A program made the translations under genes and the position numbers. Positions 50 through 12,266 of a stretch of DNA of 12,316 nucleotides are shown piece by piece. Numbering within the stretch: the first letter of the stretch is position 1; the number at the start of each line of letters is the position of its first letter. The notes below the pieces were generated by a model. That model did no database searches and was not told the origin of the DNA. It saw only the letters and a list, made by a program, of their open reading frames with translations. The stretch comes from a virus, in the UHGV virus genome UHGV-0059442; one strand, written 5' to 3'.

Positions 50-532
50 ATGGAAGAACTTCACTTTGTTTACATCAATGCAAATGGTCGTATCGGAGTT
101 CACTCAATACAGAGCATCAGTTATAGCGAAAATCATATACAGGGCATTTGTAAGAACACCGATCGAATAAAAACCTTCCGAAAAGACCGCATTCTTAAAC
201 AGTACGATTCACCAGAACAAGCCATTCAGGAATGCGCGTCATTCCTCCCCGAAAACTACTCACACCTCACTAAGCAGTCTGGTCCGAAAAAAAATACATT
301 CGATGTGTGTTTCACCGGATTTAAGAAAGCAGATAAAGAAAGATTGGTTGATAAGGCGAATGAACAAGGATTAACGGTAAGAACCTCTGTAACCCAAAGC
401 CTTCAGATGCTCTGTTGCGGTTACAATGCAGGCCCATCAAAAGTATCGGCAGCCAGGATGAAAGGCACAATCATCATAGATGAGCCTGGCTTTATACATT
501 TTCTTGAAACGGGTGAGATCCCAGATGAATAA
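50..532 (+). CDS. Hypothetical two-domain protein: N-terminal WYL-like domain, C-terminal BRCT-like domain
   Basis: Complete 160-aa ORF; in-frame stop at 26-28 upstream; AAGAGG Shine-Dalgarno about 7 nt before ATG at 50. N-terminal segment FVYINANGRIGVHSIQSISYSENHIQGICKNTDRIKTFRKDRI fits the WYL-domain pattern ending in R-x-FR-x-DRI. C-terminal segment FDVCFTGFKKADKERLVDKANEQGLTVRTSVTQSLQMLCCGYNAGPSKVSAARMKGTIIIDEPGFIHFL resembles a BRCT fold as found at the C-terminus of NAD-dependent DNA ligases. Noticeably lower GC than the adjacent phage late genes. Confidence 0.5.
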   Translation: MEELHFVYINANGRIGVHSIQSISYSENHIQGICKNTDRIKTFRKDRILKQYDSPEQAIQECASFLPENYSHLTKQSGPKKNTFDVCFTGFKKADKERLVDKANEQGLTVRTSVTQSLQMLCCGYNAGPSKVSAARMKGTIIIDEPGFIHFLETGEIPDE

Positions 533-558: not shown

Positions 559-777
559 TCAAAAATTCATATGCCCCTGACCACCTGGCAATGGATGTGG
601 AGGAGCAGTAGCAATCAGTGCGGGTGTCACAATAAACCGGACCACTGTTTCATGGGTAACAAAAGTGCTCCCGCAGTTAATATTTTGGCACTGGCAGTAA
701 CGCTCTTTGGTGCTTTCAGTTACTTGAAAACTGCTCCTTGTGTGTGCCGCATGACCACACTTTGGACAATTCATCAT
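559..777 (-). CDS. ogr: Ogr/Delta-family zinc-finger late-gene transcriptional activator
   Basis: Translation from the internal Met (MMNCPKCGHAAHTRSS...TKERYCQCQNINCGSTFVTHE...PHPLPGGQ) is about 72 aa with the C-x2-C...C-x4-C arrangement and strong resemblance to P2 Ogr; the 87-aa ORF in the track is an N-terminal over-extension. Putative SD (AGGGA) upstream of ATG at 777. Confidence 0.85.
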   Translation of the reverse strand: MMNCPKCGHAAHTRSSFQVTESTKERYCQCQNINCGSTFVTHETVVRFIVTPALIATAPPHPLPGGQGHMNF

Positions 778-3008: not shown

Positions 3009-3054
3009 AGGGAAAGGTTGCCATCAGGGGAAGAAAGGCGGCAGTGCTGCAACT

Positions 3055-3072
3055 TGTATCAGTGCTGATACA
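3055..3072 (-). promoter_or_regulatory. Candidate Ogr-dependent late promoter element (TGT-N12-ACA dyad) upstream of V
   Basis: TGT (3055-3057) - 12 nt ATCAGTGCTGAT - ACA (3070-3072), embedded in the near-perfect palindrome TTGTATCAG TG CTGATACAA, located in the S-V intergenic gap directly upstream of the V start. Confidence 0.5.
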
Positions 3073-3076
3073 AAGA

Positions 3077-3523
3077 TCATCCCGCCAGCCATTGCAGAAT
3101 CATGTCGCGGGTCATTGCCTCAACATCATCATTTACACCCAGCAGGCGGCGCTCTGCGTAACGGACCTCCGGTCCTTTGCGACTGACGCGATCACGCAGG
3201 CCGTAATGGTGAACACGGGCAATACGCTGCACCTTGCCTTCAAACTGTACGCTGGCAGAGTCGGCGCTGGCGGCAGTTTTCAGGTATTTTGTGGTGCGCA
3301 ACTTTGCAAACATCTGACGTTTGATGCGGCCTTTCTTGCTGCGTGCTGTTACCCTGCGCGGTTCATAACTGCTGCCATCTGGATTGCGCTGCATCCTGAT
3401 ATTCTGCTGCTGTGTCCGGCGCAGTTCCTGCGCCAGCTGGCGCATCATGCGGCTTCTCGTGGCTGGTTCCAGATTCGCCAGCAAGGCACTCAGCCAGTCG
3501 TCCACCTTCTGCAGTTCAGCCAC
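3077..3523 (-). CDS. S: Tail completion / virion morphogenesis protein S
   Basis: 148 aa; position between R and V and the MAELQKVDDWLSALLANLEPATRSRMMRQLAQELRRTQQ... pattern fit the gpS family. Apparent GTG start at 3523, 4 nt after the R stop. Confidence 0.75.
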   Translation of the reverse strand: MAELQKVDDWLSALLANLEPATRSRMMRQLAQELRRTQQQNIRMQRNPDGSSYEPRRVTARSKKGRIKRQMFAKLRTTKYLKTAASADSASVQFEGKVQRIARVHHYGLRDRVSRKGPEVRYAERRLLGVNDDVEAMTRDMILQWLAG

Positions 3524-4471: not shown

Positions 4472-4575
4472 GCTGATACCTGTTGCGCCATCTGATTACG
4501 GGTGATCCAGAAGGCAATAACGGTCAGTAGATAAAAGACCAGGGTAATAGCCCACCCCGTCCAGCGCCAATCGCT
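4471..4575 (-). pseudogene. Remnant 3' end of the gene preceding lysB (lysA-like membrane protein), ~33 codons
   Basis: Reading the minus strand in the frame whose TGA overlaps the lysB ATG (ATGA) gives ...DWRWTGWAITLVFYLLTVIAFWITRNQMAQQVSA*, a hydrophobic helix tail. The frame is closed by a stop about 35 codons upstream and there is no start, so only a C-terminal stub remains. Confidence 0.4.
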
Positions 4576-5084
4576 TTATGCAGACGCGCCCGTGACTGGT
4601 CCGGCATATCCAGACCGTCTGTCAGCTCCAGCGTCTGCAACAACAGATCGGCATCAAAGCCGGTGGCGGCAAGCATTGCGCTCTGCGCGGCGTCTGCCAT
4701 TTCCTCTGCCAGCACGGTCTGCACGTTGCGGTTACCCAGCGGCATCACCCAGCCATGACGCAGGGCATGACGCCCGATCTCCAGCGCCCCGGCATAATCT
4801 CCGGCATCAATGCGCCACAGCATCACGTACATCAGCACGTCATCCTGTTGAGCGCCTCCGGCAGCCAGGACACCCTCTGCCCAGGCGGCGTACTTCGGCA
4901 GCAGCTCCACCTTGATTTCCGCTTTTTTGACCGTGGACTGAACGCCCTTGAGACGGCGGCGGTCTTCCGCCAGTTGCAGCAGCATCAGGTCATAGCCCGA
5001 TGCGTGGCGAACACTGCCGCCCTCGCGGGCGGCCTGTTCAGCCTGAACGCGCAGGCGATGCTGCCGTGCGGGACTCAGGCTCAT
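4524..5084 (-). pseudogene. M: Terminase endonuclease (small) subunit M, C-terminally truncated
   Basis: MSLSPARQHRLRVQAEQAAREGG...LLPKYAAWAEGVLAAGGAQQDDVLMYVMLWRIDAGDYAGALEIGRHALRHG... matches P2 gpM over about 175 aa, then ends in a non-matching tail (...GRGGLLPWSFIY*) at 186 aa; P2 gpM is about 250 aa. Confidence 0.8.
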
Positions 5085-5087
5085 GGA

Positions 5088-6146
5088 TTACGCTCCGGTT
5101 TCGGCTGCGGCGGCGCTGAAATCACCAATCTGGATGTTTTCCACCAGTGCGGCGCAGCGGTAGTCCTCAACCACATAGGCTTCATTAACGGATTCAAAGT
5201 TTTCAATCCGGTCACGTTTCGGGTTGTCGATAACTGAACGGCGGCGGGTGTCTTCCTGCCAGTAGATGGACAGGTTATCCAGACGGGTGATCAGCAGCGC
5301 ATTCGGCGGGAAGAACGGCGCACGCACGGCCTGCAGGCCACCCATGCGTTTCTGGCTGATGATCATATCGGCAGCCAGTTTTTCACTGTTTTCCTGCTCT
5401 TTGTTGACCAGCGGGAAATACTTGTCAGACAACAGTTCACGACCGCAAATCACCACCAGATCGTCATCGTCCTGGTAAACCACGTCGATAAGCTCATTGA
5501 CGGCATCCATCACCACAGCGTCCAGGTTGGCATATTCGCCACCTTTCCCGACTTTCACCGCACCCGGAGTGGTTTCACCGCCCGTGGTGGTGCTGCCCAT
5601 GACGTGATCCGGTGCATCCTCACGGATTTTCTGCAGCCAGCCTTTGTTCACATCCTGCAGCAGCGGGTTTTCGCTACGGTTGGAGGTTTTCGCACGCTTC
5701 ACGCCGTTAAAGCCGATCATGATGCGGTCCAGTGCCTGACGTTTCACGATGGCGTCACGGATGCGCACCTGGAAATCCTGAAACTTCGCCCACAGATCCA
5801 GCTTCGCGTAGGTCAGCACCGTGTCAAAGTTGGTCTGCTCGCATTTATATTCCACATCGACCATCAGGGTCGGATCGACGGGTTCACGCTCTTTCGCGGT
5901 GGTGTCAGTGGTTCCGGCAATGGTGCTGCCAACACCCAGCCCCAGCAGCTGACCGGACTGCTCAGTCACTGGCGTGACGTTAATCAGCGTCAGGAAAGCG
6001 GCGGACTGCTGGATCTGGTCCTCCAGCGTCTGCTGCACAGACGGCTCCACAGTGAATTTGCTGGACAGTTCTTCAACTGCCACACCGTTCAGACGCGCCA
6101 GCTGCTGCAGGTAAGCGTTAAAAGCAAAGCGGGTATTCTTCTTCAT
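5088..6146 (-). CDS. N: Major capsid protein N
   Basis: 352 aa, size and sequence typical of P2 gpN; immediately downstream of O, with its stop 3 nt before the M start. Confidence 0.9.
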   Translation of the reverse strand: MKKNTRFAFNAYLQQLARLNGVAVEELSSKFTVEPSVQQTLEDQIQQSAAFLTLINVTPVTEQSGQLLGLGVGSTIAGTTDTTAKEREPVDPTLMVDVEYKCEQTNFDTVLTYAKLDLWAKFQDFQVRIRDAIVKRQALDRIMIGFNGVKRAKTSNRSENPLLQDVNKGWLQKIREDAPDHVMGSTTTGGETTPGAVKVGKGGEYANLDAVVMDAVNELIDVVYQDDDDLVVICGRELLSDKYFPLVNKEQENSEKLAADMIISQKRMGGLQAVRAPFFPPNALLITRLDNLSIYWQEDTRRRSVIDNPKRDRIENFESVNEAYVVEDYRCAALVENIQIGDFSAAAAETGA

Positions 6147-6162
6147 CGGGTTTTGTGCTCCA

Positions 6163-6996
6163 TCAGCAATTGGTCAGAGTGTCAGCGGGGGCGTTACCGC
6201 CTGTTGCACGCTGGCGGTAGTCCTGGCGGCTGTCTACATGACTCAGCTTATTCACCAGTTCGTTAAAGGCGGTCTGCTGTGCCTGCAGGGCAGTCTCCAG
6301 CTCAGACAGACGTTCTTCCTGCTCAGACAGGGATTTTTCGGTGCGTGCGCTCAGGTTCTGCTGCTCAGTGGCGACCAGCTCCACGGCCTTATGCACATCA
6401 GAGAACCGGGCGTCATCGGACTGCTCTTTTTTGGTAAACAGCGCCGTGACGCGGGCAAACAGGGACGGTTTGTCGTCCTGGACTTCTTCCAGTTCGATCA
6501 CCGTTTCCTCTGCGGCGGTAAAGAGATTGGCGGGATTCTGCTTGCGGTTTGCCAGCGGGTTATGGGCTGCACTGGCGCTGAATGTCAGCATTTCAGTGCC
6601 CAGACTGGCAGGGTCATCAGTGGCAGCCAGGCCGACCAGGTAGGCTTTGCCCGTATCAGCGAACTTCGGGCTGACTTCCATAGAGGTGAATAATTTCTGG
6701 CCTTTTTTCACCAGCTCCACCAGGGACTCCGTTGGCTCAACGTCGGCATACAGCGCCATCTTGCCTGCCAGCGGACCTTCCGTGATTTCTTCAGCAAACA
6801 GCGCCGTCACCTTGCCGTAGCGGTTAAAGGTGCTGTCCGGCAGATAAGACTTGATGTGCTCAAGGTTAATCAGCGCGGTATACACCGCCGGGTTATAGCT
6901 GGCTGCCATCTGTTCCAGCCATTCACGCTGGATTTCGCGTCCGTCGGTGGTGGCACCTTCCACCCCGATGCGAAAACGCTTTGCTTTCACTGTCAT
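6163..6996 (-). CDS. O: Capsid scaffolding protein O
   Basis: 277 aa; FRIGVEGATTDGREI...INLEH...YLVGLAATDDPASLGTE...SDDARFSDVH...ATGG...TNC closely resembles P2 gpO; GGAG SD about 9 nt upstream of ATG at 6996. Confidence 0.9.
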   Translation of the reverse strand: MTVKAKRFRIGVEGATTDGREIQREWLEQMAASYNPAVYTALINLEHIKSYLPDSTFNRYGKVTALFAEEITEGPLAGKMALYADVEPTESLVELVKKGQKLFTSMEVSPKFADTGKAYLVGLAATDDPASLGTEMLTFSASAAHNPLANRKQNPANLFTAAEETVIELEEVQDDKPSLFARVTALFTKKEQSDDARFSDVHKAVELVATEQQNLSARTEKSLSEQEERLSELETALQAQQTAFNELVNKLSHVDSRQDYRQRATGGNAPADTLTNC

Positions 6997-7009
6997 GAGC
7001 CGTGCTCCG

Positions 7010-7432
7010 TTAGAAAAAACTTACTGGAGCCTTATGGTTGCGGTGATAGGGGCAGTGAAACAATGCGCGGTATTTGTACCGACAACCGTGACGATTGAGA
7101 TACAGGAAATATACCGCTTTCATGAAATCAGTAATTTCAGTTGAGTAATTAAACTCCTGCCTTATGTTGTAATAAGCTACCTCCCTGTTTGCGATCTCAA
7201 ATAAAACTCTGGCGCGAGATATAAACGATTCACAATCAGCGGCAACCTTTTTATAGAGGTTGATTAAATCAGGATTAATATCCGCAACCAGATAGCTGGG
7301 GTAATCCGTCTCCATCATCACAGCACAGGAACCCGCGAAAGGTTCAACCAGTCGCGGGCCAGCAGGAAGGTGTTTTTTCAGTTCGGACATAATGGCGGTT
7401 TTATTTCCCGCCCATTTCAGGATGGTGCTCAT
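7010..7432 (-). pseudogene. dam: DNA adenine methyltransferase (Dam, D12 class), N-terminal ~120 aa only
   Basis: From the internal Met: MSTILKWAGNKTAIMSELKKHLPAGPRLVEPFAGSCAVMMETDYPSYLVADINPDLINLYKKV...FLYLNRHGCRY... carries the AdoMet-binding motif (EPFAGS) and aligns with the first part of E. coli Dam, but the ORF ends at 7010 without the catalytic DPPY motif. Start ATGA-overlaps the upstream traR-like gene. Confidence 0.8.
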
Positions 7433-7656
7433 ACAGCACCTCCGTTGTAATGTTTGCCTTTCAGCTCTGCGATTTCCTGACAGGTAATGCAAAGCTGCAC
7501 ACCTGGAATGGCGCGGCGGCGTGCTGGCGGAATTGGCGCTTCACACTCAATGCAAAGCACGCGGGACACGCCCGGCGTTTTGGCACGGGCAGCACGGATA
7601 TGGCGCTGGCGTTCTTCTTCAACGCGCTGCTGTACAAGATCCATTGCATCAGCCAT
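7429..7656 (-). CDS. TraR/DksA-family C4 zinc-finger protein (phage early region)
   Basis: 75 aa with CIECEAPIPPARRRAIPGVQLCITCQ (C-x2-C-x17-C-x2-C); AGGAG SD upstream of ATG at 7656. Confidence 0.7.
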   Translation of the reverse strand: MADAMDLVQQRVEEERQRHIRAARAKTPGVSRVLCIECEAPIPPARRRAIPGVQLCITCQEIAELKGKHYNGGAV

Positions 7657-7889
7657 TAGTGGATCTCCTGCGCTTCGTTCTGGATTGCTTCAGCAGTTAC
7701 ACGCAGTAGTTCTGCTGCTTCGACGTGGTTTAGCTGGCGGGATGTGATATGACACGCCAGGCTATCAAGGCGAGCTGCCATTGCTTCAGCCCTTGCCCGG
7801 CGTTCTTCCAGACGAGCCTCTGTCAGTAAAATATTAAGCCCTGCATCATCCGGTCCGGTTTTAGTCGTGAGGGTTTCAATATTACGCAT
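7656..7889 (-). CDS. Hypothetical phage early protein
   Basis: 77-aa ORF from the ATG at 7889 with AGGAG SD about 8 nt upstream; Ala/Arg/Glu-rich, helical-looking; no family recognised. Confidence 0.45.
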   Translation of the reverse strand: MRNIETLTTKTGPDDAGLNILLTEARLEERRARAEAMAARLDSLACHITSRQLNHVEAAELLRVTAEAIQNEAQEIH

Positions 7890-7956
7890 AATCAATTCTC
7901 CTGAATTTAGATAAAGGGATACCCGGCGGGTTTACGCCATTAATTTCATTAGTTGG

Positions 7957-8298
7957 TTAATTCGGCATGGTTAGCCGTCTTGGAAATAAGCTCACCACTG
8001 CACGAAAATGATTCATTGCTTTAATCAACTCCCGCTTTTCGTCAGTGGTCAGCTCATTAATGCTGATGCTATGACGTTCAGCTGGAATTTTTGCCATAAA
8101 GAATATAGCAGCCAGTGCCCGTTTATTTTGTTCGTTATTGATATCCCGTGGATCACGCATATCTTTAATAAACCGCTCAAGCTCTGACTCAATATTCAGG
8201 CCAAATACTTTCGCCCTTAACTCCGCAATATGGTTAAGTCCATTCAGGCGTTCACCGGGGCTTAATGGAACAGTCGCCGCAGCGCCTTCAATAGCCAT
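7957..8298 (-). CDS. Hypothetical phage early protein
   Basis: 113-aa ORF with a G-rich SD before the ATG at 8298; no family recognised. Confidence 0.45.
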   Translation of the reverse strand: MAIEGAAATVPLSPGERLNGLNHIAELRAKVFGLNIESELERFIKDMRDPRDINNEQNKRALAAIFFMAKIPAERHSISINELTTDEKRELIKAMNHFRAVVSLFPRRLTMPN

Positions 8299-8462
8299 TT
8301 GTTCCCCCGTTTTTTCGTAGATAGTTCTGCCAGCAATTCATCTTGTGAACGGCACGGATGCCAGCGTTTACCATCCTCCCCCATGATCCAGCCGTGACCG
8401 TAGTGCATTGCCGGGCTTTGTTTTACCAGCAGCGATGCAAATGATGGTTCTTTCGTCAGCAT
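8262..8462 (-). CDS. Hypothetical phage early protein (position corresponds to fil/dhr of phage 186)
   Basis: 66 aa if started at the ATG at 8462 (GAGGTG SD 5 nt upstream, 7 nt after the cII stop); Cys/Trp/His-containing small protein. Confidence 0.4.
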   Translation of the reverse strand: MLTKEPSFASLLVKQSPAMHYGHGWIMGEDGKRWHPCRSQDELLAELSTKKRGNKWLLKALRRLFH

Positions 8463-8469
8463 AAGCACC

Positions 8470-8979
8470 TCACAGCAAACCGAATGACGCACCGAGGCCA
8501 GTTACAGTATCAACTGCACTTGCCATCGCAGGATTAGCCTGTAAACGGGCCTGCAATGAAACAGCCGCCAGCGCCATCAGTCGTGTTACAGAGTTAATGC
8601 TGCTGATAGCATCACGACGACCTGCACTGGTTTTTACATCGCCAGATACCGCACCTGCAGCAACACGCCCGATCTCTGCAGTTGCACTCATGACGTAATG
8701 CGGCAGTTTCTCTTTTGCCACCTCATTAATCGGAACACATGGCAGACAATGAATCTGTGCCAGAAAACCGTCTACCAACGTTGAATCTTCAGTCAGATCG
8801 GTAAGCAACCAGATTTCTGGTGCGGTGAGCTGATGCGGTTGATCTGGATTGAGTTTGTTTCGCAGTGTCTGAACATTCATTCCTGCACGTTCTGCCAGCT
8901 TTGCCATATTGTGACGTAGTGCAAAAGCTCTACAGGCTTCATCAAAATGCGGATGTTTGGAAATCTTGTAATCAAACAT
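8470..8979 (-). CDS. cII: CII-type lysogeny-establishment regulator (phage 186 CII family)
   Basis: 169 aa; MFDYKISKHPHFDEACRAFALRHNMAKLAERAGMNVQTLRNKLNPDQPHQLTAPEIWLLTDLTEDSTLVDGFLAQIHCLPCVP... matches my recollection of 186 CII nearly along its length, including the HTH. Confidence 0.8.
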   Translation of the reverse strand: MFDYKISKHPHFDEACRAFALRHNMAKLAERAGMNVQTLRNKLNPDQPHQLTAPEIWLLTDLTEDSTLVDGFLAQIHCLPCVPINEVAKEKLPHYVMSATAEIGRVAAGAVSGDVKTSAGRRDAISSINSVTRLMALAAVSLQARLQANPAMASAVDTVTGLGASFGLL

Positions 8980-9011
8980 GCTGCCCCCTTAGAAAGTTCT
9001 CATAATTGAAC

Positions 9012-9260
9012 TTAGTCACCAACGATGACATTAAAGTTGAAATTGGATTGGCCCATGTTTTTCCTGACTTGTTCCTTTTTGTACTCAAGGTAACGTATAC
9101 ATACTCTGTCTTTCGGTTTTTCTTTTCTTTCCAAGAATTTAGCGAGTTTACCATTATGAATCATTTGATATACCGAACCGCGAGAGCGGCCTTCCCATTC
9201 CGCGAACTCAGCTGGTGTCGCCATCACTTTTGGTACACGAATTGAAATGTCGTTGCTCAT
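9012..9260 (-). CDS. apl: Apl/Cox-type excisionase and lytic-switch regulator
   Basis: 82-aa first gene of the leftward early operon, divergent from cI; basic HTH-like small protein (...RGSVYQMIHNGKLAKFLERKEKPKDRVCIRYLEYKK...). Confidence 0.7.
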   Translation of the reverse strand: MSNDISIRVPKVMATPAEFAEWEGRSRGSVYQMIHNGKLAKFLERKEKPKDRVCIRYLEYKKEQVRKNMGQSNFNFNVIVGD

Positions 9261-9270
9261 AGTGCAGTAT
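9242..9270 (+). promoter_or_regulatory. Candidate lysogenic promoter pL for cI-int
   Basis: TTGAAA (9242-9247) - 17 nt - CAGTAT (9265-9270) on the plus strand inside the apl 5' end, facing cI. Confidence 0.35.
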
Positions 9271-9310
9271 CTCTCGATTAAGGTTTGGTTTACGTCGTTT
9301 TATCTTGTTT

Positions 9311-9364
9311 TATTTGATTCAATATTTGATACACCAAGATACTACGATCCAATATTTGATACGT
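9311..9364. repeat. Direct repeats of an ATTTGATA-containing motif (candidate CI operators) overlapping pR
   Basis: GATTCAATATTTGATACAC (9316-9334) and GATCCAATATTTGATACGT (9346-9364), 17 of 19 identical, 30 bp apart; a further TATTTGAT at 9311-9318. Confidence 0.5.
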
Positions 9365-9367
9365 CAA
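9339..9367 (-). promoter_or_regulatory. Candidate lytic promoter pR for apl-cII operon
   Basis: On the minus strand TTGACG (9367-9362) - 17 nt - TAGTAT (9344-9339); strong sigma-70 match, oriented toward apl. Confidence 0.5.
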
Positions 9368-9379
9368 CAGGATTAAAAA

Positions 9380-10012
9380 ATGATACAAGTAAAAGCTGGC
9401 GAGAATACAGGGGGAAGAGAGGCTATCCATAGGCTAATGGCAGCCTATGATTTCAAGTCCAGACAGCAACTTTGCGATCACTTGGGCGCATCAAAAAGCA
9501 CTATGGCAAACAGATACTTAAGAGATAGTTTTCCTGCAGAATGGGTGATTCAGTGCGCTTTGGAAACAGGAGTTTCTTTACTGTGGCTAACTACCGGACA
9601 GGGCGATCCAGGTTCAAACATTGACCCTAAAAGAAATATCAATTCCGTGAACTCTAGCAAAGTTAAACCTCTTTCGGAGCTTGTATCTCCTGAAATTGAC
9701 AAGGCAACTCTCAACGGAGGTTTGCTGATCGATGCTGGAAAAGCAATCATTGATAGCAGCATACTCCCCTCAGACTCAAGCAACCTGCTGCTGGTGACTA
9801 CTTCTGGTGATTCTTATTTAATAGATCGCAACCAAACACCACCAGTAAATGGTACGTGGTTAGTGGACATCGACGGGATAAAAAGCATTGTAAAATTGAC
9901 ACGACTCCCGGGAAACAGATTAGTAGTGCATCAGGATGATTCATCGTTTGAGTGCGAACTGGATGACATTGAGGTAATAGGCCGCGCACTGAAAATCATT
10001 AAGAGCCTTTGA
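9380..10012 (+). CDS. cI: CI-type immunity repressor (186-like, HTH N-terminal domain plus C-terminal domain)
   Basis: 210 aa; N-terminal HTH (SRQQLCDHLGASKSTMANRYLRDSFPAEWVIQCALETGVSLLWL); sits immediately upstream of int and divergent from apl. Size fits 186 CI rather than the ~100-aa P2 C. Confidence 0.8.
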   Translation: MIQVKAGENTGGREAIHRLMAAYDFKSRQQLCDHLGASKSTMANRYLRDSFPAEWVIQCALETGVSLLWLTTGQGDPGSNIDPKRNINSVNSSKVKPLSELVSPEIDKATLNGGLLIDAGKAIIDSSILPSDSSNLLLVTTSGDSYLIDRNQTPPVNGTWLVDIDGIKSIVKLTRLPGNRLVVHQDDSSFECELDDIEVIGRALKIIKSL

Positions 10013-11039: not shown

Positions 11040-12266
11040 ATGACTCTCCATCAAACTTTATCTAAAGAATTAAGAGATTTATTTGTTAGTATTTTAAGAC
11101 GTTCTCTTTTTCGCCCCCCCATCAAAATAAATGGGGATATAGTCTCTGATTTTTCAAACAGATGCGAGCAGTTCAAAGAGTGCCTAAATGAATACATTTG
11201 TGATAACAATAATGCTGCTTCCGAAAGAGTTAAGCCAAGAATTAAAACTATTGAAAAAATACAACATGGATTAACTAATTCTCTTAAAGCATTTTTATCT
11301 GGCGACATTAAAGGAGCCTACGATATTTTTGATGAAGTTTTATCATACCCTACTGTCTATAGACATCTAAGAAGAATATCCATTCCACTAAAAGAAATAT
11401 GTAATAAGCACAAGCCTTTATTCAGGGTAAGAAAGTCAGATAGACCAGTCGTAACAAGAAAGGAAATATTTCATATCCCATTCACTCATCGACATCTTGT
11501 CAATGCTCAACGCTACTCCGTTGCAGGTTTGCCATGCCTTTACTTAGGTTCATCTCTCTATATATGCTGGCAGGAAATGGATAAACCTGACTTTGATAAA
11601 TTATACCTATCATCATTTATATCTTGGGATGAGGAATCTTATATTTTAAATTTAGCTGCAGATTTTCTTTACAGTAGAACCGCTAAAGGATTTTACGGTG
11701 ATATTAGTAATAGAGATAACCTCATTAAAATATCATATTTAACTTTATGGCCTCTGATAATTGCATGTAATTATTTAAAGCAGAATGAAAACTCTTCATT
11801 TAATCAAGAATATATCATCCCAAATTTGTTAATGCAGTGGATAAGTCGACTTGAAGATAGAGCTATTGTCGGCATAGCATATCGCTCAACAAAAATAAAA
11901 AGAACAGCAAACTCACACTTAGCAACTAATGTCGTCTTGCCTCCAAAAGTAAACTATGAAGATACAATCACAAAACCTTATTGTCAGAAACTATTGTCAA
12001 TGTTTGAGTTTACTCAACCTGTATCATGGCAGGTTTTGAAAACATTAGACTATAAAATTGATAATGAAATAAATCAAGAGCAAGAAAAAGCAATTCATTT
12101 ACTAAAACAGAAAGAAAGATTAAGTGGCATACAAGATTTAAATGAAGATCTTATAAACCTTTATCCTTTAACAGACTTCTACAAGCTAGAACAGTGCATG
12201 GATCGCCTGCTACAGTATGATGTACTTGAGATAAAATCTGGCGGCACTTTGGCGGCAGAGCATTAA
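11040..12266 (+). CDS. RES-domain protein with N- and C-terminal extensions (putative standalone toxin/defence effector)
   Basis: 408-aa ORF, ATG 3 nt after the int stop; strongly AT-rich. Central region shows RES-domain hallmarks: LFRVRK..., AQRYSVAGLPCLYLGSSLYICWQEM (compare the G-R-W-N...P-x-L-Y...E core of RES toxins) and the C-terminal motif IAYRSTKIKRTANSHLATNVVLPP (compare ...PSA...N-x-V-L). About 125 aa upstream and 100 aa downstream of the RES core are unassigned. Confidence 0.6.
   Translation: MTLHQTLSKELRDLFVSILRRSLFRPPIKINGDIVSDFSNRCEQFKECLNEYICDNNNAASERVKPRIKTIEKIQHGLTNSLKAFLSGDIKGAYDIFDEVLSYPTVYRHLRRISIPLKEICNKHKPLFRVRKSDRPVVTRKEIFHIPFTHRHLVNAQRYSVAGLPCLYLGSSLYICWQEMDKPDFDKLYLSSFISWDEESYILNLAADFLYSRTAKGFYGDISNRDNLIKISYLTLWPLIIACNYLKQNENSSFNQEYIIPNLLMQWISRLEDRAIVGIAYRSTKIKRTANSHLATNVVLPPKVNYEDTITKPYCQKLLSMFEFTQPVSWQVLKTLDYKIDNEINQEQEKAIHLLKQKERLSGIQDLNEDLINLYPLTDFYKLEQCMDRLLQYDVLEIKSGGTLAAEH

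Follow-up and report, generated by a model that had tools for sequence, protein, structure and literature searches.

A very probable single deletion at a microhomology joins a truncated dam gene to the upstream region of the capsid scaffold gene O in a defective P2/186-type prophage of Escherichia coli

At the Ogr/B late promoters of phages P2 (P_O/P_P) and 186 (pV/p12), one dyad lies between two divergent operons. The consensus of the P2, Ogr-dependent late promoters is TGT-N12-ACA (PMC3931495). In P2, the activator site is located 80-110 nt upstream of the O start codon and transcription of O starts 40 nt upstream; in 186, the annotated B site, which serves the divergent promoters pV and p12, lies 79-98 nt before the start codon homologous to that of O, and the pV promoter is annotated 31-68 nt upstream of that codon. 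The replication origin of 186 is annotated inside gene A, the SOS-controlled antirepressor gene tum lies downstream of A, and the annotation has the early terminator tR1 overcome by anti-termination when the early lytic genes are transcribed. Decay by deletion is described for cryptic ('grounded') E. coli prophages (PMC6379469). The element described here resembles these grounded prophages in having lost replication, packaging and lysis genes while keeping the immunity region, integrase and cargo, and differs from them in being a P2/186-type remnant of a rare lineage whose remaining open reading frames (ORFs) are intact.

The window, that is, the whole stretch of 12,316 nucleotides analyzed (UHGV-0059442), was a P2/186-type (Peduoviridae) genome, with Klebsiella phage Kp4845-2 and Escherichia phage Cartapus, a member of the genus Elveevirus, as its best matches in a megablast search of phage records. 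All relevant genes were on the minus strand of the window. Collinear blocks covering the early, capsid and tail modules were 89-99.8% identical to Cartapus, Kp4845-2 and L007, an intact prophage with the same order of ypjA, a gene for a 408-aa protein, int, cI and onward at the equivalent chromosomal position. The gene order was also that of Cartapus (NC_070909), Kp4845-2 (OK490395) and the prophage of E. coli Z1322HEC0005, with 89-99.8% DNA identity in the retained blocks, but intact Elveevirus/186-type prophages keep about 23 kb, in four blocks, that are missing from the window. The flank of the ENA contig L004, which contains the window, matched E. coli ypjA/ehaD at 99.5% identity, and the host is therefore E. 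coli. The window is a defective Elveevirus-like P2/186-type prophage of the E. coli chromosome adjoining ypjA, and the Z1322HEC0005 prophage, which also adjoins ypjA, occupies the same insertion site. A P4-type satellite or packageable mini-phage, considered on account of the size of about 12 kb, was ruled out by the lack of cos; every called gene was a P2-type gene or prophage cargo, and the P4 satellite genes (primase alpha, sid, psu and delta) were not encountered.

Two cargo genes were present. The cargo slot adjoining int held a gene for a 408-aa protein (11040-12266, plus strand), which was 50% identical to a Cartapus protein annotated as 'putative RES protein, NAD+ binding domain' and matched no Pfam or PADLOC profile. 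This gene was kept at the same position in E. coli Z1322HEC0005 with 97% DNA identity, and a role in defence or as a moron is possible. Between ogr and att, the slot was occupied by a gene for a 160-aa protein (50-532, plus strand), annotated as 'putative exonuclease' in Cartapus, whose only similarities were weak ones, BRCT-like (E = 0.0011, below the Pfam cutoff) and to the PADLOC PDC-S48 C-terminal profile (E = 1.8e-7).

The window was mosaic. Its early region (7084-9500) shared 99.8% identity with Kp4845-2 and 11 similar records, all of them prophage-derived phages of Klebsiella pneumoniae, and its capsid region (4562-7087) was closest to E. coli prophages, with up to 99% identity. Judged from these identities, the mosaicism suggests recent exchange across genera. 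The immunity region had also been exchanged: CI (cI at 9380-10012, plus strand) shared no more than 53% identity with its Cartapus counterpart, and at 9603-9903 the homology of the DNA to Cartapus and L007 was broken, with int and cII on either side being 91-96% identical. Kp4845-2 matched the stretch 9603-9903 without interruption.

The junction between dam and the O upstream region was located by blastn against the three intact relatives. Positions 4562-7087 of the window matched Cartapus 6246-3721, Kp4845-2 17567-15042 and L007 8316-10838, and the sequence from 7084 onward matched Cartapus 28741-26226 (to window position 9603), Kp4845-2 5609-1675 (to 11018) and L007 20001-22516 (to 9603). 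All three showed the identical sharp break at 7084-7087. The junction was assigned to these positions because the matches of the relatives all stop exactly there and none spans both sides. The overlap was a 4-bp microhomology, AACC on the plus strand (GGTT in the gene sense), present in both parental sequences, and in the parental contexts recovered from L007 it was the only sequence shared at the junction. No longer imperfect homology that could have guided the deletion was found, local alignment of the parental flanks being no better than that of shuffled sequences. A guide of extended homology, suggested by the CRY...F..PY likeness of the ORF tail to Dam, was ruled out by the same shuffle test. 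Microhomology with flanks at shuffle level is the signature of an illegitimate, microhomology-mediated deletion. The data thus indicate that a single deletion of about 9.2 kb within the prophage very probably joined dam to the O upstream region; illegitimate recombination at GGTT would have connected dam codon 116/117 to the intergenic sequence at 91 nt before the O start codon. The earlier note had placed the breakpoint near 7010-7060, which was not borne out, since the matches of the relatives end at 7084-7087. Its proposal that one deletion removed the 3' part of dam, A, cos, Q and P agreed with both the alignments of the relatives and the tblastn searches described next.

The interval between the two breakpoints measured 9,166 bp in L007, 8,347 bp in Cartapus and 9,433 bp in Kp4845-2. 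In L007 it held the 3' part of dam, the replication endonuclease gene A, a small ORF, a DinI-like gene, DUF2971 and DUF4062 genes, and the portal and terminase ATPase genes; in Cartapus, cos is annotated inside the 8,347-bp interval. No tblastn match to gpA, portal, large terminase or DinI-like protein was obtained in the window or in the 17.9-kb L004 sequence, and only random 11-13-mers of the window matched the cos regions of Cartapus, P2 and 186. Portal and terminase genes were likewise missing from the expected place on the 61-kb contig that contains the window. The deletion would therefore have taken the DPPY-bearing 3' part of dam, A with the origin, the DinI-like gene, cargo, cos, the portal gene Q and the large terminase gene P. 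The region corresponding to the origin and tum of 186 was gone. Its gene content shows this to be a prophage that would be unable to replicate or to be packaged.

Three other deletion junctions were found in the window. Junction 2 (4562-4564, CAG microhomology) corresponded to a loss of about 1.9 kb comprising the 3' end of M, L, X, the holin and lysozyme genes and the 5' part of lysA; the remaining M', from the small terminase gene that adjoins N, consisted of 174 native residues and 12 foreign ones. Junction 3 (1394-1416) lay in imperfect short homology with an overlap of 23 nt and corresponded to a loss of about 9.7 kb comprising the 3' end of J, I, H, G, the invertase gene, FI, FII, E, T and the 5' part of U. 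Junction 4 (905-907, TAT microhomology) was an in-frame 693-nt deletion inside the tail gene D. The parental contexts of all four junctions were recovered, and together the four deletions reduced a prophage of about 35 kb to about 12 kb. These three additional microhomology deletions point to stepwise prophage decay. All genes without a joint were full length, including O, N, cI, int, ogr (562-777, minus strand) and the two cargo genes, and the intactness of these remaining ORFs suggests that the decay was recent.

The joint could also have arisen by illegitimate recombination between two P2-like genomes, either of two prophages resident together or of one prophage and a phage infecting the cell, and we consider this improbable. 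The region 7084-9500 was 99.8% identical to Kp4845-2, whose late region was only about 97% identical to that of the window, other E. coli prophages reached 99% identity with the late region of the window, and no single relative in the collections was nearly identical on both sides. However, P2-like mosaicism accounts for differing nearest relatives without a second genome, and in L007, which occupies the same site in the chromosome, the two halves stand in the order expected. An intramolecular deletion takes only one event, and the three other junctions of the element share its type of microhomology.

We analyzed what the deletion had left of the late promoter of O. The retained part of the P-O intergenic region (6997-7087, minus strand; 91 nt) was 97-100% identical to the O upstream region of the relatives, so that 91 of the approximately 142 nt of P-O intergenic DNA in Cartapus were kept, including the O ribosome-binding site GGAG. 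In the intact relatives Cartapus (L001), Kp4845-2 (L002) and L007, an identical dyad, TGTGTGGTTGTCGGTACA, is a perfect TGT-N12-ACA and lies 79-96 nt upstream of the O start. In the window this Ogr/B late-activator dyad (7075-7092, minus strand) was truncated: 13 of its 18 nt remained (7087-7075), the proximal ACA among them, and the distal TGTGT was replaced by dam-derived GTCAC at 7092-7088. A scan of the window accordingly gave no TGT-N12-ACA match at the truncated P_O site. In Cartapus, a closely similar dyad, TGTGTGAATAACGGTACA, was found upstream of FI, and a further TGT-N12-ACA match upstream of V; such matches are no commoner than chance in these genomes, and the dyads were assigned by position and conservation. 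The only intact TGT-N12-ACA dyad in the window was that of P_V (3055-3072), 47-64 nt upstream of the V start. The neighbouring slot between S and V (window 3021-3174), which holds a gene for a 176-aa hypothetical protein in Cartapus, was empty or different in the window; this slot is a variable cargo position of P2-like phages.

The O upstream region gave no meaningful alignment with P2 or 186, and only the distance between dyad and start codon could be compared. By its distances to the 186 pV promoter and the P2 O start site, the core P_O promoter, with the transcription start, is presumptively retained in the window. The single dyad between divergent operons, as in P2 and 186, was present in the intact relatives, but in the window its distal 5 nt were dam sequence and the P-side promoter was gone. 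In mutagenesis of P2/P4 late promoters, both half-sites contribute to activation, and a weakened O promoter is therefore expected. Activator-dependent expression from the O promoter would probably be much reduced, the promoter being badly weakened and not physically absent. The suggestion in the earlier note that the native O promoter had probably been removed thus holds for the distal 5 nt of the activator dyad and fails for the presumptive core region. The remnant of late-promoter sequence for which that note proposed a search near 6997-7100 was found as the dyad half at 7087-7075, and its proposed comparison of the O upstream region with the P-O intergenic region of relatives gave a match over the whole of 6997-7087.

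The genes downstream of the junction were intact. The capsid scaffold/protease gene O (6163-6996, minus strand; 277 aa) was 97% identical to Cartapus O, with which all 277 residues aligned, and matched PF05929 over its full length (profile positions 2-268 of 268, E = 6e-113). The major capsid gene N (5088-6146, minus strand; 352 aa) was 99.7% identical to Cartapus N. Upstream, the early operon was in the order pR-like promoter, cox/apl, cII, fil, DUF5347, DUF2732 and a dksA-like gene, and dam' and O-N-M' were co-oriented with it. The pR-like early promoter, TTGACG-17-TAGTAT (9339-9367, minus strand), faces cox/apl and was recognized by consensus match only, its position being compared with that of 186 pR. 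The last intact gene of the operon encoded a TraR/DksA-type zinc-finger protein (7429-7656, minus strand), and its stop codon overlapped the dam' start (ATGA). A homologue of the annotated 186 terminator tR1, GGCGTAAACCCGCCGGGTATCCCTTTATC, was kept between the DUF5347 and DUF2732 genes (7910-7938, minus strand).

A scan for terminators between dam' and O gave only a 5-bp hairpin without a proper T-run, which is at the chance rate, and RNA folding in this interval was no better than that of shuffles (z = -0.93). As no strong terminator separates dam' from O, an early transcript would probably continue into O, and read-through of O-N from the CI-repressed early operon, as predicted from this arrangement, is plausible. 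In the intact phage, the early transcript would have had to pass the tR1-like terminator to reach dam and A; a transcript passing it in the window would run into O and N. With cI intact and the Tum/DinI region deleted, derepression would need an outside trigger.

This arrangement allows the fusion to be read as adaptive, with the remnant domesticated to keep the scaffold and capsid genes under the immunity-controlled early promoter against the capsid assembly of incoming P2-like phages. The element would then be a maintained mini-prophage in which the deletion took O-N away from Ogr and placed it in the early operon under CI; once derepressed, for example when a related phage superinfects, it would release a flood of foreign scaffold and capsid protein that disturbs head assembly of the invader. 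The uncut genes, namely O, N, cI, int, ogr and the two cargo genes, are indeed all intact, and O-N stands directly downstream of the early operon with its native ribosome-binding site. However, recent deletions would equally leave ORFs intact, M, which adjoins N, is cut by another deletion, the junction is confined to a handful of contigs and to none of the complete genomes, and all copies are identical, with no sign of long-term maintenance. We regard both the adaptive fusion and the maintained mini-prophage as very unlikely, and prefer decay through a single deletion within the prophage.

The occurrence of the junction was also investigated in sequence collections. Among 5,426 complete E. 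coli genomes, many matched 6880-7087 or 7084-7290 at 100%, and none spanned the dam'/O junction when the junction and the whole window were used as megablast queries. An exact 30-mer over the junction had no match in GTDB representative genomes or IMG/VR. The window was 100% identical over 12.3 kb to the 61-kb ENA contig (L004:5117-17432; ERZ1314529) and over 8.2 kb to the Logan contig L005 (ERR414450), and the exact 140-aa chimeric protein was recorded from NCBI, Logan and ENA, on six contigs that were read and that reached 50-200 kb. The junction was identical in independent assemblies and therefore did not arise as an artefact; the scar is real, although rare and restricted by lineage. That the truncation and abutment came from a chimeric contig of a normal prophage is even less credible than an adaptive origin: the absence of the junction from the complete genomes, the GTDB representatives and IMG/VR is what an artefact would give, and the 23-nt overlap of junction 3 could mimic a k-mer join, but the six contigs come from differing sources and samples, two loci are fully identical to the window, and the 4-bp overlap at dam'/O is far under any assembler k-mer length.

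The ORF created at the junction (7010-7432, minus strand; 140 aa) begins with an ATG and comprises Dam residues 1-116, 24 codons of promoter remnant and a TAA stop. Its dam-derived DNA (7084-7432, minus strand; 349 nt) matched the dam genes of Cartapus, Kp4845-2 and L007 in blastn from exactly 7084. Residues 1-116 differed from the 285-aa Cartapus Dam at one position and included the AdoMet-binding motif I region (EPFAGSCAV; FxGxG-like). The Pfam profile PF02086 (D12-class N6-adenine methyltransferase) was matched at positions 1-124 of 253 only (E = 3.9e-32), and the PADLOC orphan methyltransferase profile over its first half (positions 5-140 of 275). The catalytic motif IV, DPPY, stands at residues 179-182 of Cartapus Dam, past the truncation point at residue 116, and tblastn with Cartapus proteins found no C-terminal part of Dam, whether in the frames of the window or in the 17.9-kb L004 sequence. 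The last 24 codons, CRYKYRALFHCPYHRNHKAPVSFF, are not Dam sequence; they come from reading on into the DNA upstream of O. The abutment of a truncated Dam on O described in the earlier note was thus borne out, with the profile match ending at position 124 and no DPPY present; 13 nt separate the dam' stop codon (7012-7010) from the O start codon (6996-6994). This closeness is incidental, the ORF reading through the promoter remnant until its first stop.

In BLASTP and tblastn, the alignment with Dam ran on across one gap as far as residue 139. At the DNA level, the similarity past residue 116 was no better than that of shuffles (396 of 1000 scored as well), and by this comparison the extension is a chance similarity. 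A full-length dam with a frameshift was ruled out on these grounds, no frame holding further Dam homology, and correction of a single indel recovered no full-length Dam. The reading in which a point mutation or single indel broke a full-length dam, superficially suggested by the one-gap alignment, has a negligible chance of being right, as the DNA from 7083 downward matches the O upstream region of the relatives at 97-100% identity and Dam homology ends in every frame of the window at residue 139, the extension to that residue being chance. Compared with the Dam of P2-like phages (D12-class), dam' is nearly identical in the N-terminal 116 residues, but it is without DPPY and the C-terminal half; it is a gene fragment and not a functional member of the family. 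Its composition shows dam' to be a pseudogene by-product that would be unable to methylate DNA.

The 90% protein cluster of dam' otherwise contained ordinary N-terminal Dam fragments labelled 'partial' by NCBI, none with the chimeric tail. Many of these ended at residues 117-153; a 132-aa form, for example, was present on 14 contigs. Breaks within dam may be frequent in assemblies, perhaps where co-resident P2-like prophages share a mosaic boundary.

The element is a case of ordinary prophage decay, a process already well described (PMC6379469), and gives no indication of a new type of system. In annotation, the 140-aa 'Dam' is best treated as a pseudogene fragment, with its last 24 residues being promoter read-through, and the element as a non-inducible prophage remnant that is not packageable. 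With four junctions, each with identifiable parental sequences, it illustrates microhomology-mediated prophage decay cleanly. Only one feature is mildly notable: the breakpoint at dam'/O divides the late-activator site that the two divergent promoters share, and the locus could serve as a natural half-site mutant for Ogr/B promoters.
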